A stretch of DNA of 64,000 nucleotides from Gammaproteobacteria bacterium. Its GTDB lineage: Bacteria > Pseudomonadota > Gammaproteobacteria > JADZEE01. This document shows, one piece after another, positions 34,609-39,454 of the stretch. Each line of letters begins with the position of its first letter. The first letter of the stretch is position 1. The notes beneath the pieces are model-generated. The model did not search any database, had not been told where the DNA came from, and saw only the letters and a program-made list of their open reading frames with translations. The stretch spans positions 42,653-106,652 of the forward strand of contig JBFXBD010000006.1 of the NCBI GenBank assembly GCA_050183625.1, in the 5' to 3' direction. The position numbers and the translations under genes are program-made.

Positions 34609-34627
34609 AACCGGCAGCCTGCCGGTT
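34609..34627 (+). terminator. Perfect 8–9 bp GC-rich hairpin immediately after the ispF stop (AACCGGCAG-CC-TGCCGGTT). No U-tract follows.
   Basis: An inverted repeat is visible in the sequence. The missing T-run makes the terminator assignment weak. Confidence 0.25.
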
Positions 34628-34872
34628 CCGGCGCCGGGTCACGTCTGCGCGCGCGCCGTCATGCTTGTTGACCTGCGCTTTATCCACAAGTCTCGTCCAT
34701 ATGCTAATCTCGGCCCGCGTCGTCGCCGGAGGACCGCTGAACCACGGATTGGCGCGTGGCATCGCGATGTGATCGCGGTGCATCCAGGATCGCGTTCATC
34801 CGTCGGGTGCGTCCCCTCGCTGGCGTGCGGCGCAGGCCGTGTCAGTCACACACCCAGGCTAGGAGATTCACG

Positions 34873-35784
34873 ATGAGTGCGATCCGCATCACCAACGATG
34901 CCCTGTTCGACAATTTCCGTCAGTTGCGCATCGAGGTCGAGCCAGAGCTGGCAACGGCCTGGATGTTCATGCAGCCGCATCCGCGGCCGTGTTTCACCCC
35001 GGAACTGCTCGACGAGATCCAGCAGTACCAGCGCATGCTGGTGCATTACCGCGGCCACCTGCCCCAGGGCAACGAACTGGTGCGGATCGACTATCAGGTA
35101 TTGGCGTCGTCGGATCCGGCGATATTCAACCTCGGCGGCGACCTGGAGCGTTTTCTGCGTTGCATCGAGAACCGCGACGCCGAATGGCTGCGCCGCTACG
35201 GCTACGCCTGCGTCGAGGCGGGATACCGCAGCCTGACCGGCTACGACCAGTCGATAACGACGATCTCGCTGATGCGCGGCGAGGCGCTCGGCGGGGGCCT
35301 GGAGTCCGCGCTCTTCAGCCACGTGATGATCGCCGAGCGGGACGCGAAGATGGGCCTGCCCGAGGTGCTCTTCAACCTGTTCCCGGGGATGGGTGCGTTC
35401 CAGCTCATCGCCCGGCGTACCAGCGCGGCGCAGGCGCAGCGCATGATCCAGAGCGGCCGCATCTACGGCGCCGAGGAACTGTATGACCTGGGCATCGTCG
35501 ACGTGCTCGCCGAGCCCGGCGACGGCATCGCCGCCCTGCATGCGTACGTGAAGTCCCATCGCCGGCGCCAGAATGCCAACCTCGCGATCGAGCGCGTGCG
35601 CCGGCTCGCGGCGCCGGTATCGTACGACGAGCTGACCAAGGTCGTGGACATCTGGGTGGACGCGGCCATGCAGCTCGACGAGCGCGACCGCCGGACGATC
35701 CAGCGCCTGATCCGCAGCCAGAACCGCCTGCCCGGTGCACCAGCCGTCCAGGCCGCCGAGCCGCCGCTGCGCGAGGTGGGCTGA
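34873..35784 (+). CDS. rpfF: DSF-family signal synthase RpfF (crotonase superfamily)
   Basis: Long blocks match Xanthomonas RpfF as I recall it: VLASSDPAIFNLGGDL, GLPEVLFNLFPGMGAF, DIWVDAAMQLDE…RLIRSQ. RBS AGGAGA lies upstream. Convergent with the rpfC/rpfG homologues. Confidence 0.85.
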   Translation: MSAIRITNDALFDNFRQLRIEVEPELATAWMFMQPHPRPCFTPELLDEIQQYQRMLVHYRGHLPQGNELVRIDYQVLASSDPAIFNLGGDLERFLRCIENRDAEWLRRYGYACVEAGYRSLTGYDQSITTISLMRGEALGGGLESALFSHVMIAERDAKMGLPEVLFNLFPGMGAFQLIARRTSAAQAQRMIQSGRIYGAEELYDLGIVDVLAEPGDGIAALHAYVKSHRRRQNANLAIERVRRLAAPVSYDELTKVVDIWVDAAMQLDERDRRTIQRLIRSQNRLPGAPAVQAAEPPLREVG

Positions 35785-35839
35785 GGCGGGCGACGCGCCG
35801 CCGCTTGGGTGGGCGGCGGCGCGTCGGAGCGCTCGGGGA

Positions 35840-38386
35840 TCAGCCGGCTGCGCTCCCCGGCCGCTCGACGTAGGCTTCCAGTGCCGAGCGTGCGCGCGCG
35901 AATTCGTTTTCCAACTCCTCCGCCAGCCGCGATGCATGCGCGCGCATGTCCTCGCGGGTATGGCGCGCGGTATGCGCGCAGGCCTGGGCCAGCGCATGCG
36001 CACCGATGCTGCGCGCACTGCCCTTGAGCGCGTGGGTCAGGTCGCCCACCTGGCCGGCGTCCGCCGCGCGCAGCGCGGCGCGAATGTCGGCGAGTAGCTT
36101 CTCGCCGTCGTTCACGAACCCGCGTACCAGTTCGGGCATGAACTGCGGGTCCTTGCTCAACGCCGAGAGTTCGTCGAGCGTGGCGGTTTCCAGCACTGGC
36201 CCGCCGAGCGCCGGGCGGCGTGGCGACGGCACCACCTTCAGGTGCGACTCGCGCCGGCGGGTGCCGGCGCGTCGCGCACCGCCGCCGCTGGCCTCGAAGA
36301 CCTGCAGCACGGTGTCCAGCAGGCGCTGGGGTTCGATCGGCTTGGTGAGATAGGCGTCGATGCCGGCCTCCTCGCATTCGCGCGCGGCCTCGGCGGTGGC
36401 ATTGGCGGTGAGGATGACGATCGGCGCACGGCGCTGGCCCGGACGCGAGAACCGGTACACCTTGGCGGCCTCGATGCCGCCCATCACCGGCATCTGCATG
36501 TCCAGCACGATCACGTCGTAGCCCGCGCGTTCCAGCGCGTCCAGCGCCTCCTCGCCGTTGCCGACCACGTGCACGCTGTGGCCACCGTGTTCGAGGATCT
36601 TCGTGATCACCTTCTGGTTGGTCGGGTTGTCCTCGCCGACCAGGATCCTCAGGCCCGTGAGCGGTGCCAGCTCCGCGCGCGCTTCCGACTGGGGCGGGCG
36701 CTGGGCCGCCGGCGCTGCCAGTTCGACGCCTGCGGCGTGCAGGACGTTGATGAGCAACGGCTCGGATGCGGGCAGATCGACCACGCACAGGTAGCCGGCG
36801 CGCAGCGCGGCATCGACATCCAGCCCCGTGCCGGCCGGCGCCAGCAGCACCAGCTTGGGCAGGGTTCCGGTGGCGCTCTCGCGCATGGCTTGCGCGACGA
36901 GCAGCGCATCGAACCCCGCGCCACCGGTGATGAAAACGCAATGCGGGCGTGCGCCGTCGTCCACGGCGCACGCTTCCAGCGCGGACTTCGCATCCGCGAC
37001 GTTCTCCCAGCTCGCGCCGAGCCGGGCGAGGGCCGCGGTGAAGGCGTCCACGCGCGCGTCGCCCGCGCCGACCAGCAGCACGCGCGCGTGCGCCAGGCGC
37101 GGGGCGTCGCGGCCCTGGAACTCGAAGGGAACCTCGAACCAGAACGTGCTGCCGGCGCCCGGTTCGCTGATGACCCCGATCCGCCCGTTCATCAGTTCCG
37201 TGAGCTGCTTGGCGATCGCGGTGCCCAGCCCGGTACCGCCGTAGCGGCGCGTGGTCGACTCGTCCGCCTGGGTGAACTTGTCGAAAATCCGCATCTGCGC
37301 GTCGCGGCTGATGCCGATGCCGGTGTCGCTCACCGCGAAATGCACGGTCACCGCGGTGTCGGTGGCGGCCGAGACCGCGACGCGGACTTCGATCCTCCCG
37401 CGCTCGGTGAACTTGACCGCGTTGCCGATGAGGTTGATCAGCACCTGGCGCAGGTGCAGCGAATCCCCGCGCAGGCGGAACGGCACCGTGGGCGCCACGT
37501 GCAGGTCCATGCGCAGTCCCTTGGCACGCGCCTGCGGTTCGAACATCCGCACCGCGTTGTTGACCGTGTCGTGCAGGTCGAAGTCGGCGTGCGCGATTTC
37601 GGTCCGGCCTGCCTCGATCTTGGAGATGTCCAGGATGTTGTTGATGAGCGCGAGCAGGGTCCGGGCCGAGCTCTGGATCGTATCGACGAACTCCTTCTGA
37701 TCGGTGCTGAGCGGGGTGCGGGTGAGCAGATCGCTCATGCCGATGACGCCGTTCAACGGCGTGCGGATCTCGTGGCTCATGTTGGCCAGGAACTGGCTCT
37801 TGGCCTTGTTCGCCTCTTCCGCCGTGCGCACCGCCTGCTGCATGCGCCGGATCAGGATCGAGGCGTACAGGTCGACGGTGATGAAGGCGATCAGCATGCC
37901 CACGCCGAGCGTGCGCTGCTCGATCCAGTACGGCGTGGTGACCAGCACCCAGCCGAAGCAGGCGACGGTCAGCGAGGCGTTGATCAGCAGGTAGCGATTG
38001 CCGTAGCGGAAGGCGTTGCCGAGGGTAACGAAGAAGTACATCGCCACCAGCCAGGCACCCAGCTCGCCGGTGGCGGCCATCGCGTAGCTGATGCCGGCCG
38101 CGTCGAGCACGATTCCGGCCACCCGCCGCGCCGGGCTCACGCGCGGGAAGGCGACGATCGCCAGCAGGATGGCGATCGCGAGCAGTACGTACAACGCCGA
38201 GATCGGCGTCGCGTGCCATACCACCGCCGCCGCGTCGCCGCCGATGCGCAGGTACGCCAGCCAGACCGCACCGGCGATCAGCCGCAGCGCGGCCTGCTCG
38301 TGCTCGGTATCCTCGCGGGCGGCGAGCCGGCACCGAAGCCAGTTGAGCGGGGATGAGCGCCTTGGTGTGGGCGGGGAAGCGGGCAT
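35840..38386 (-). CDS. rpfC: Hybrid sensor histidine kinase RpfC-like (TM sensor–HisKA–HATPase–REC–HPt)
   Basis: About 5 TM helices at the N-terminus, H-box [13 protein letters not shown], HATPase G-boxes, REC ([11 protein letters not shown]), and a C-terminal HPt ([12 protein letters not shown]). Confidence 0.85.
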
Positions 38387-38395
38387 GCGGGGGTC

Positions 38396-39454
38396 TCAGT
38401 CGACGTCCTGCAGGGGACGGTGGTCGAGTTCGAAGCGCGCGACGCGGTCGAGCTGGGCGCCGAATGCCTCGACGCATTGCGGGTCGAAAGCCGCGCCCTT
38501 GGCGCGCATGAGGATTTCGACCGCCCGATCCATCGACACCGCCGCGCGCCACGGCCGCGGCGAGGTGAGCGCGTCGTAGGCGTCGACCACCGCGACGATG
38601 CGCGCCGGCAATGGAATCGATTCGGCGCGCAGCCGGTGCGGATAGCCGCTGCCGTCCCAGCGCTCGTGGTGCGCCAGGGCGACCACCGCGGCCTGCTGCA
38701 GGTACGGCGAGCGATGTTCCCCGAGGAAGGCGTGGCCGAGCGAGCAGTGGTTGCGGACCACGTCGAATTCCTCGGCCGTGAGCCGCTCGGGCTTGAGCAG
38801 GATGCGATCCGGCACGCCGATCATGCCGACGTCATGCAGCATCGCGGCCAGTTCTATCGCCTCGGCCTGCTCCTCGGGCAGGCCGAGGCGGCTGGCGATC
38901 AGCCGGGCGAAGTGCGCCGCGCGCACGGTGGCCTGGCCGGTCGGATCCTCGCGGTAGACGGCGTGGCGGGCGAGAATGAGCAGTGATTCACGCTCCCGAT
39001 CGCGCAGCAGCCGGGTCGCGTCCGCCACCTGCTTCTCGAGCCAGCGCGAACGATTGCGCAGCATCTGCGCCTGCCGGCGCATCGTCAGCAGGTTGTGGCA
39101 GCGCGCCCGGCACTCGTGGTGGTCCACCGGCTTGTTGAGGATGTCGGTGGCACCGGCCTCCAGCGCCTGGTAGCGCACGATGCGGTCGTCGACGACGGTG
39201 ATGACGATGATCGGTACGTCAGCCAGGCCCGGGATCGCACGCAGGCGGCGGATGAACTCCACGCCATCCATCTCCGGCATCTTGTAGTCGGTGAGGATGA
39301 GGTCGGGCCGGTTGGCCTGCGCCCAGGCGAGCGCGGCGAGCGGGCTCGAAAAGCTCTCCAGCACCAGGGTCGCGTCGAGCGACGCCAGGAGTTCTTCGAG
39401 AATGAGCCGGCTCGTCGACTGGTCGTCGACAATCATGACCGTCGCCACGGACAT
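38396..39454 (-). CDS. rpfG: Response regulator RpfG-like (REC + HD-GYP c-di-GMP phosphodiesterase)
   Basis: REC domain (IVDDQ…DLILTDYKMPEMDG) plus HD-GYP with HHERWDGSGYP. Confidence 0.9.
   Translation of the reverse strand: MSVATVMIVDDQSTSRLILEELLASLDATLVLESFSSPLAALAWAQANRPDLILTDYKMPEMDGVEFIRRLRAIPGLADVPIIVITVVDDRIVRYQALEAGATDILNKPVDHHECRARCHNLLTMRRQAQMLRNRSRWLEKQVADATRLLRDRERESLLILARHAVYREDPTGQATVRAAHFARLIASRLGLPEEQAEAIELAAMLHDVGMIGVPDRILLKPERLTAEEFDVVRNHCSLGHAFLGEHRSPYLQQAAVVALAHHERWDGSGYPHRLRAESIPLPARIVAVVDAYDALTSPRPWRAAVSMDRAVEILMRAKGAAFDPQCVEAFGAQLDRVARFELDHRPLQDVD

Follow-up and report, generated by a model that had tools for sequence, protein, structure and literature searches.

A chromosomal rpfF/rpfC/rpfG signaling module of the DSF type, with a long-form RpfC, in an uncultured gammaproteobacterium

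In a 64-kb stretch of DNA from an uncultured gammaproteobacterium (64,000 nucleotides of contig JBFXBD010000006.1, hereafter the window), rpfF, rpfC and rpfG make up a genuine DSF-type (diffusible signal factor) signaling set, a well-known kind of system. The gene for the crotonase-fold synthase RpfF converges with the operon rpfG-rpfC at 39454-35840 of the minus strand, which codes for a response regulator and a hybrid sensor kinase, and the ispD-ispF genes lie 264 bp upstream of rpfF (Table 1). The locus is very probably a chromosomal DSF-family quorum-sensing module of this bacterium, the chemistry of the signal being deduced from homology. The assignment draws on the gene order, on the domains and motifs of the three proteins and the families into which they fall, and on the finding that the three genes occur together in many genomes. 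The original prediction had described a complete rpfF/rpfC/rpfG module of the DSF type, convergent as in the Xanthomonadales. This description holds in the light of domain searches, motifs and comparison with Luteimonas granuli, and the coordinates, motifs and distances given for rpfF, rpfC, rpfG and ispD-ispF were all correct.

Searches of the PDB matched RpfF to 7zq7 (E = 7e-58), to RpfF of Xanthomonas campestris pv. campestris (Xcc; 3m6m, 6e-55) and to Bcam0581 of Burkholderia cenocepacia (5fus, 3e-46), whereas housekeeping hydratases (FadB/EchA) appeared at about 1e-12. RpfF is 40% identical to its Xcc counterpart and 33% to Bcam0581. In a neighbor-joining tree of 51 sequences, into which the PDB sequences entered as aligned regions only, it fell within the RpfF family, among proteins of a sub-clade from uncultured Gammaproteobacteria; the metabolic hydratase encoded in the window, 21% identical to RpfF, formed a long outgroup branch. 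The protein thus groups with DSF synthases and not with housekeeping enoyl-CoA hydratases, as had been anticipated. Its score against the NCBIfam model NF006452 (338.5 bits) exceeded the cutoff of 177 and was close to that of the Luteimonas granuli RpfF used as a control (347.9), and the nearest other RpfF in the databases is 66% identical.

RpfF contains the motifs NLGGDL (residue 86), GGGLE (140), GLPE (161), FPGMGA (170) and IWVD (260). GGGLE, with E144, and GLPE, with E164, align with the GGGFE and GLPE motifs of 3m6m, and both catalytic glutamates of the Xcc enzyme, Glu141 and Glu161, are therefore conserved, in agreement with the check that had been proposed. The ATG of rpfF is preceded by a strong Shine-Dalgarno sequence, AGGAG, at 34861-34865.

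RpfC has the modular architecture of a hybrid kinase. Pfam identified HisKA (residues 195-260), HATPase_c (307-421), REC (581-693) and HPt (752-834) domains, with the phosphorylation sites H205 (in SHEIRTP), D629 (DMQMP) and H785 (HALKG). Identity to Luteimonas granuli RpfC amounts to 46% in residues 14-421 (input and kinase regions) and to 34% in residues 565-838 (REC and HPt). Its closest homologues carry the label RpfC from the Joint Genome Institute (JGI), and a full-length AlphaFold model was obtained with a mean predicted local distance difference test (pLDDT) score of 85.8.

RpfC of Xcc binds DSF through a 22-residue N-terminal sensor, in which DSF sensing requires R15, D17, S18, E19 and Q22 and the substitution S18T is tolerated (Cai et al., PMC5391125). 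In the window RpfC, the stretch R24-E-D26-T27-E28-H-E-Q31 lies immediately before the first membrane helix, and R24, D26, T27, E28 and Q31 match these five Xcc residues with equal spacing. The Luteimonas equivalent reads RPDTEHGQ, and R-x-D-S/T-E-H-x-Q is found at this position in most kinases encoded beside rpfF homologues. Among 77 RpfC homologues, E28, E30 and Q31 are conserved in at least 90%. The DSF-sensing N-terminal region on which the original prediction depended is thus present, as an RxD(S/T)ExxQ motif followed by a membrane input domain.

Five transmembrane helices had been predicted for this input domain. A membrane domain is indeed there, and it is the count that needs amending to five or six, as hydropathy analysis yielded six hydrophobic helices, one of them short, and the full-length AlphaFold model, confident over residues 11-180 (pLDDT 83-97), also has six (28-49, 59-79, 85-110, 113-128, 130-150 and 158 to about 180). 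The input domain alone (191 residues), used as a protein homology query, gave no match at E <= 1e-5; its homology was established instead by tblastn against the fetched loci described below and by matches of the full-length RpfC. By tblastn it is 38% identical to the Luteimonas input domain over 152 amino acids (E = 1e-20).

A second conserved motif, GN(G/A)FRYG, was observed where the short fourth helix ends (residues 113-129, about 38000-38050, minus strand). It hardly varies in the same 77 homologues: conservation is at least 90% for G123, N124, G125 and F126, and complete for R127 and G129. The motif is a candidate functional site of the RpfC sensor.

RpfG combines a receiver (Response_reg, 1.4e-25) with an HD-GYP output domain (HD_5, 1.6e-36). 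Its motifs are intact, with D56 in the receiver, H207-D208, and HHERWDGSGYP at 262-272. The protein matches the structurally characterized HD-GYP phosphodiesterase PmGH (4mcw, 3.5e-43), with which the metal-binding HD, HHExxDGxGYP and DxxDALTSxRPY blocks align, and it is 46% identical to Luteimonas RpfG. A gap of 9 nt separates the stop codon of rpfG from the start of rpfC downstream, indicating that the two genes form one operon, as in the Xanthomonas rpfG(H)C arrangement. We predict that RpfG is a phosphodiesterase under the control of phosphotransfer from RpfC, with the operon link as the sole indirect support.

The association of these genes extends to other genomes. A scan of species-representative genomes, in which the best match was 59% identical, together with look-ups of metagenome contigs, yielded 48 loci with RpfF homologues of 38-63% identity. 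At 35 of them, tblastn detected a kinase with an RpfC-type input domain within 6 kb of rpfF and on the opposite strand, and 13 of the 48 have an HD-GYP regulator in addition to the RpfC-type kinase.

Several observations weigh against the assignment of the locus to the DSF systems. RpfF scored 225.5 bits against the NCBIfam equivalog NF053515, 'RpfF', below the cutoff of 550; the experimentally characterized synthases are only 33-40% identical to it; and the neighbor-joining tree is without bootstrap support. RpfC has six predicted helices rather than the five of Xcc RpfC, and an extra pseudo-receiver, described below, makes its domain complement differ from that of Xanthomonadales RpfC. Neither downstream effectors such as Clp nor a FadD were found within the 64-kb window. 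As for the equivalog model, it was dropped as a criterion of RpfF membership because it is too narrow, RpfF of the xanthomonad Luteimonas likewise falling under the cutoff (310.9). The missed cutoff, the fact that Pfam assigns RpfF only the generic ECH_1/ECH_2 families, and the other hydratases and acyl-CoA ligases in the window could nevertheless be accommodated if the crotonase were a metabolic enoyl-CoA hydratase or isomerase, the two-component pair sensed something unrelated, and the likeness to rpf genes were at the superfamily level. We judge this exceedingly improbable: the protein matches RpfF structures by a margin of more than 40 orders of magnitude over metabolic hydratases, the hydratase encoded in the window stands far apart in identity and branch length, both catalytic glutamates and the pocket motifs of RpfF are conserved, and the neighbor of rpfF is a kinase with an RpfC-specific input domain in most of the homologous loci.

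A course of signaling can be proposed by homology to the Xanthomonas and Burkholderia systems. RpfF would dehydrate and cleave 3-hydroxyacyl-acyl carrier protein from fatty-acid synthesis, giving a free cis-2-unsaturated fatty acid. This signal would build up outside the cell and be bound by the N-terminal sensor and the membrane domain of RpfC. Autophosphorylation of RpfC at H205 would be followed by transfer to D629, then to H785 and finally to D56 of RpfG, whose HD-GYP domain would hydrolyze cyclic di-GMP (c-di-GMP) and lower the level of this second messenger.

Relative to Luteimonas RpfC, the window protein contains an insertion of 140 residues (422-564) that the original prediction had overlooked. 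Sequence searches with this region gave only a spurious match at 0.011 by phmmer against the PDB and only PDE8A_N at 0.035 in Pfam. As they were uninformative, we turned to structure prediction and Foldseek. An AlphaFold model of it, built with 79 homologues (pLDDT 81.5), consists of five consecutive strand-helix (beta-alpha) units, and its top Foldseek matches were all receivers, namely GacS D1 (7qz2), RssB, ETR1 and DivK, with target template modeling scores of 0.7-0.8 and GacS D1 the closest. However, the position of the phospho-acceptor aspartate reads FIT (...HCVFITGG...) and that of the acidic pair reads GA (RVLLVGAG...). The domain is therefore a pseudo-receiver, as both the acidic pocket and the phospho-acceptor are missing.

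RpfC belongs to a long-form subgroup of RpfC proteins. Among the 120 best matches listed, homologues measure about 810-1080 amino acids, with one exception of 606, and a single tblastn alignment crosses the 422-564 region for no fewer than 26 of the 35 kinases encoded near rpfF. Outside the Xanthomonadales, the long form is therefore the common one. Most environmental RpfC homologues thus carry a pseudo-receiver that the model RpfC of the Xanthomonadales does not.

The presence of a receiver fold devoid of its phospho-acceptor aspartate between the kinase and REC domains raises the question of whether the long-form kinase is a simple DSF receptor at all. It might instead be a GacS-like node whose pseudo-receiver contacts RpfF or another kinase, with a logic unlike that of Xcc RpfC. 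The pseudo-receiver of GacS occupies the same position (PMC12148439), the best NCBIfam match of RpfC is BarA, aligned in one stretch across the insertion (residues 185-817), and the REC domain of Xcc RpfC binds RpfF in the 3m6m complex. The pseudo-receiver could dock RpfF and throttle signal synthesis. Such contacts, with RpfF or another kinase, are putative; RpfC retains both its sensor motif and its input domain, the pseudo-receiver occurs commonly in RpfC homologues, and a GacS-like node would be compatible with DSF sensing rather than opposed to it. We consider a departure from the Xcc logic unlikely and keep to the view that the long-form RpfC is a DSF receptor.

The long form might be the majority and perhaps ancestral form of the DSF receptor, the short Xanthomonadales form being derived, and the module might long have been fixed between ispDF and smr-purL in a broad uncultured gammaproteobacterial lineage. 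We put this forward as a speculation that is rather unlikely. If true, DSF signaling would not be a xanthomonad specialty, and free-living Gammaproteobacteria would have inherited it vertically since early times.

Table 1. Positions in the window of the rpf genes, their domains and signals, and the flanking genes
Feature	Position	Strand	Evidence or remark
pyrG	28932-30968	+	
kdsA	30955-31779	+	
eno	31807-33099	+	
ftsB	33113-33424	+	
ispD	33428-34135	+	
ispF	34132-34608	+	
ispF-rpfF intergenic region, 264 bp	34609-34872	+	Presumed rpfF promoter region, inferred from sequence
rpfF, crotonase-fold DSF-family signal synthase, 303 aa	34873-35784	+	NF006452, ECH_1, PDB matches, neighbor-joining tree, motifs
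GC-rich hairpin between rpfF and rpfC, probable bidirectional terminator without T tract	35791-35826	both	Folding compared with shuffles
rpfC, hybrid sensor kinase, 848 aa	35840-38386	-	Pfam, alignment with Luteimonas granuli RpfC, AlphaFold
RpfC input domain, residues 1-185	37832-38386	-	Sensor motif, then 5-6 membrane helices
RpfC extra pseudo-receiver, residues 422-564	36695-37123	-	AlphaFold and Foldseek
rpfG, REC + HD-GYP regulator, 352 aa	38396-39454	-	Pfam, PDB match, motifs
Sigma-70-like promoter match	39563-39590	-	Consensus match alone, putative
Smr-domain gene (smr)	about 39610-40146	-	
purL	40172-44113	-	
ANL1 ligase	44227-45792		
ANL2 ligase	46730-48556		

The rpf cluster sits at the junction of two core blocks, pyrG-...-ispF and smr-purL. 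GC3-based gene finding and family searches showed the window to be an ordinary chromosomal core region, which also contains aroE, ksgA, pdxA, surA, lptD, ispG, cysG, metG, rnfACD, the gene for formate-tetrahydrofolate ligase (FTHFS), purB and gyrA; no rRNA or tRNA gene was found in the 64 kb. The GC content is 70% throughout and 0.68-0.70 in the rpf region, with no compositional break at the locus. Given this uniformity and the conserved synteny described next, recent horizontal acquisition was rejected.

The original prediction had the module attached directly to the ispD-ispF operon. The adjacency itself is real, and it is no accident of this genome, as the same block recurs in related metagenome-assembled genomes (MAGs). 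The gene ispF stands directly upstream of rpfF in 11 of the 48 loci, whose local GC content ranges from 38 to 71%, and purL lies on the far side in 9 of these 11. A further metagenome contig (L055), reached through the closest RpfC homologue, has the same block without purL. The recurring order is FTHFS / pyrG-kdsA-eno-ftsB-ispD-ispF-rpfF, then convergent rpfC-rpfG-smr(-purL), and the block corresponding to 27335-44113 of the window is kept in L004-L008, L019, L021, L023, L025, L026, L040, L041 and L055 (our locus numbers).

A functional attachment is another matter. If rpfF were co-transcribed or co-regulated with the genes of the methylerythritol phosphate (MEP) pathway, signal production would be tied to the synthesis of isoprenoid or envelope precursors. 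The recurrence of the adjacency over such a wide GC range, and once more in L055, would fit this possibility, as would two features of the intervening gap. A hairpin after the ispF stop codon was discarded as a terminator, being no stabler than shuffled sequence (z = -0.26), and hence provides no argument for separate transcription of rpfF; in addition, a sigma-70 scan of 34400-40300, for which shuffles predict 0.3 sites, found no consensus site on the plus strand between ispF and rpfF. Yet ispD and ispF overlap or abut while the ispF-rpfF gap, 264 bp here, measures about 170-480 bp in the relatives and is thus never below about 170 bp, and rpfF has a strong Shine-Dalgarno sequence of its own. 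The closest RpfF homologue at NCBI (62% identical) lies elsewhere, beside genes of the 2-oxoacid:ferredoxin oxidoreductase type (POR/TPP-domain), and the loci of Xanthomonadales (Luteimonas), beta- and alphaproteobacteria carry the module in still other neighborhoods. With universally conserved core blocks on both flanks, retained synteny is the simpler explanation, as argued by the wide gap and by the different contexts of the closest NCBI homologue and of the xanthomonad, beta- and alphaproteobacterial loci. The MEP pathway is not known to be linked biochemically to DSF synthesis, and neither the locus nor its relatives yielded evidence of a functional link between the rpf cluster and isoprenoid synthesis. 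Functional coupling is thus highly unlikely in our view, and the shared position in related MAGs suggests an old, vertically inherited residence of the module at this site.

The 55 bp that separate rpfF from rpfC, on the opposite strand, contain a hairpin with a 16-bp GC-rich stem. On the plus strand the segment 35782-35842 folds with -42.4 kcal/mol (z = -4.15), on the minus strand with -38.6 kcal/mol (z = -5.80), none of 200 shuffles folding as well, and a bidirectional terminator is plausible. The sole promoter-like site found by the sigma-70 scan, TGGTCA-16-TATAAT, lies about 110 nt upstream of rpfG. A riboswitch or other structured RNA in the 264-bp leader of rpfF was also considered and rejected, Rfam having no match anywhere in the window.

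Some of the related loci differ from the window in ways that may bear on the signal or its perception. A fatty-acid desaturase gene (Pfam FA_desaturase) directly follows rpfF in L006, L019, L023, L025, L026, L040, L041 and L052 (for example at 8994-10070 in L006 and 10964-12025 in L026), the proteins being 45-51% identical to one another. The gene stands between rpfF and rpfC wherever the contig reaches far enough; the window is without it. Such a desaturase could modify the signal, for instance by introducing a second double bond.

Pairs of rpfF and an RpfC-type kinase were also seen in alphaproteobacteria (Aureimonas, Acetobacteraceae; L010, L011, L022, L024, L031, L032, L035, L043, L044 and L050). 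A regulator near these pairs matches the receiver of RpfG only (residues 1 to about 150), pointing to an output domain other than HD-GYP. Another eight loci (L012, L013, L014, L018, L020, L029, L048 and L051) encode a distinct RpfF clade, 42-44% identical to the window RpfF, with no RpfC-type kinase within the fetched flanks, some of the contigs ending early; this clade may use another type of receptor. Finally, a MAG labeled Sulfuricaulis sp. (GCA_054639735.1; L054, 5516-11535) has a long-form RpfC homologue, 44% identical, downstream of genes for an HD-GYP regulator and two GGDEF proteins, with a PilZ gene nearby; the locus contains no rpfF. This protein is possibly an orphan sensor of the DSF type, coupled to both synthesis and degradation of c-di-GMP. 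With its different, rpfF-less context, this locus was dropped as a guide to the window.

The absence of rpfB and rpfH had been pointed out for this cluster. Both are indeed missing: no ligase of the FadD/RpfB type is encoded in the window, ispF occupying the place upstream of rpfF, and the 9-nt gap between rpfG and rpfC is too small for an rpfH-like open reading frame. What did not stand is the idea that this is peculiar, as the variation is a known one (PMC4504480, PMC8357829). The gene rpfH lacks wide conservation, Xylella and Burkholderia have an unlinked rpfB, and Thiobacillus, Methylobacillus, Methylophaga and Leptospirillum contain rpfF-rpfG-rpfC clusters (PMC4504480). The Leptospirillum cluster is a bare rpfFCG set, and culture extracts tested in a biosensor assay suggested DSF-family compounds (PMC8357829).

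Two ANL ligases encoded about 5 kb away had been proposed to supply the RpfB function, which is not borne out by NCBIfam scores or tblastn, neither being an orthologue of FadD/RpfB. Luteimonas RpfB is a FadD-type ligase (NF006442, 1043 bits), and its best tblastn match in the window was ANL1, at 33% identity. ANL1 passed the cutoff of the FadD3 family NF005801 (727.6, cutoff 657) and reached 262 against FadD, for which the cutoff is 884; ANL2 stayed below every NCBIfam cutoff. Between the two ligases and the rpf genes lie smr and purL, and the ligases are at best generic RpfB candidates. Together with a GDSL lipase gene and an enoyl-CoA hydratase gene (NF004857, 307.9 bits, just under 341), they occupy 44227-49483 and appear to form a catabolic group of the lipid or steroid side-chain kind. 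It is followed by a divergent gene for a winged helix-turn-helix-methyltransferase protein and then by one for an AraC-family regulator.

Set beside known systems, the module has the convergent layout of the rpf cluster of the Xanthomonadales. In Luteimonas granuli (L045), rpfB-rpfF is convergent with rpfC-rpfG, and the window shares the convergence of rpfF with rpfG-rpfC. The two have in common both RpfF glutamates, the RxD(S/T)ExxQ sensor and multi-helix input domain of RpfC, its HisKA-HATPase-REC-HPt order, and the REC and HD-GYP domains of RpfG, with 41-46% identity between the corresponding proteins. Unlike the Xanthomonadales cluster, that of the window is without linked rpfB and without rpfH, it lies in an ispDF / smr-purL neighborhood, and it belongs to an uncultured bacterium from the environment instead of a plant pathogen. 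Its RpfC has 848 amino acids against 710 in Luteimonas, owing to the pseudo-receiver insertion.

In gene content, the module resembles the minimal three-gene modules, without rpfB or rpfH, of Leptospirillum, Thiobacillus, Methylobacillus and Methylophaga (PMC4504480, PMC8357829). Two loci from Hydrogenophilales/Thiobacillaceae MAGs (L017 and L036) encode RpfF together with a kinase of the long-form or RpfC type and a regulator with HD-GYP; identities are 45-53%. The Leptospirillum arrangement, however, is unidirectional, and rpfC is split in L. ferriphilum (PMC8357829), whereas the window genes are convergent. The Burkholderia cenocepacia system, which uses the Burkholderia DSF (BDSF), has a homologous synthase in Bcam0581 (33%, E = 3e-46) with the same catalytic residues, and also acts on c-di-GMP turnover, but its receptor is RpfR, a cytoplasmic PAS-GGDEF-EAL protein, in place of a membrane hybrid kinase and an HD-GYP regulator. 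With the GacS/BarA kinases, RpfC shares the cytoplasmic order HisKA-HATPase, pseudo-receiver, REC and HPt. It differs from them in having an RpfC-type multi-helix membrane sensor and not a periplasmic PDC/HAMP input, and its partner is an HD-GYP regulator rather than a DNA-binding regulator of the GacA type.

A few observations concern parts of the window remote from the rpf genes. The product of 81-1145 shows an uncommon fusion of two cyclic-nucleotide-binding domains with one rhodanese domain; as it is without a helix-turn-helix, it is not a regulator of the Clp/CRP type. Genes resembling rnfA/E, rnfC and rnfD occupy 17969-21522, in the most GC-rich part of the window (18000-24000; GC 0.72-0.74, AT skew as low as -0.20). 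Next come a gene for a Na/H exchanger of the Kef type that has a TrkA_N domain (21467-23983) and an open reading frame without Pfam match (24006-25331).

The locus is thus a correct recognition of a known system and an added member of the long-form RpfC subgroup in an uncultured lineage. The isoprenoid neighbors and the absence of rpfB and rpfH are both unremarkable, and the understanding of the DSF system is unchanged. JGI pipelines already name the closest homologues 'DSF synthase' and 'RpfC'. Modest value attaches to three points: the minimal rpfFCG set is the common form, a pseudo-receiver is found in most environmental RpfC proteins, and some relatives have a desaturase beside rpfF, which hints at modified signals. 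rpfF and rpfG are among the most abundant quorum-sensing genes in metagenomic surveys (PMC12781772). The bacterium studied here is one more uncultured environmental gammaproteobacterium that is predicted to use DSF-type signals coupled to c-di-GMP turnover.

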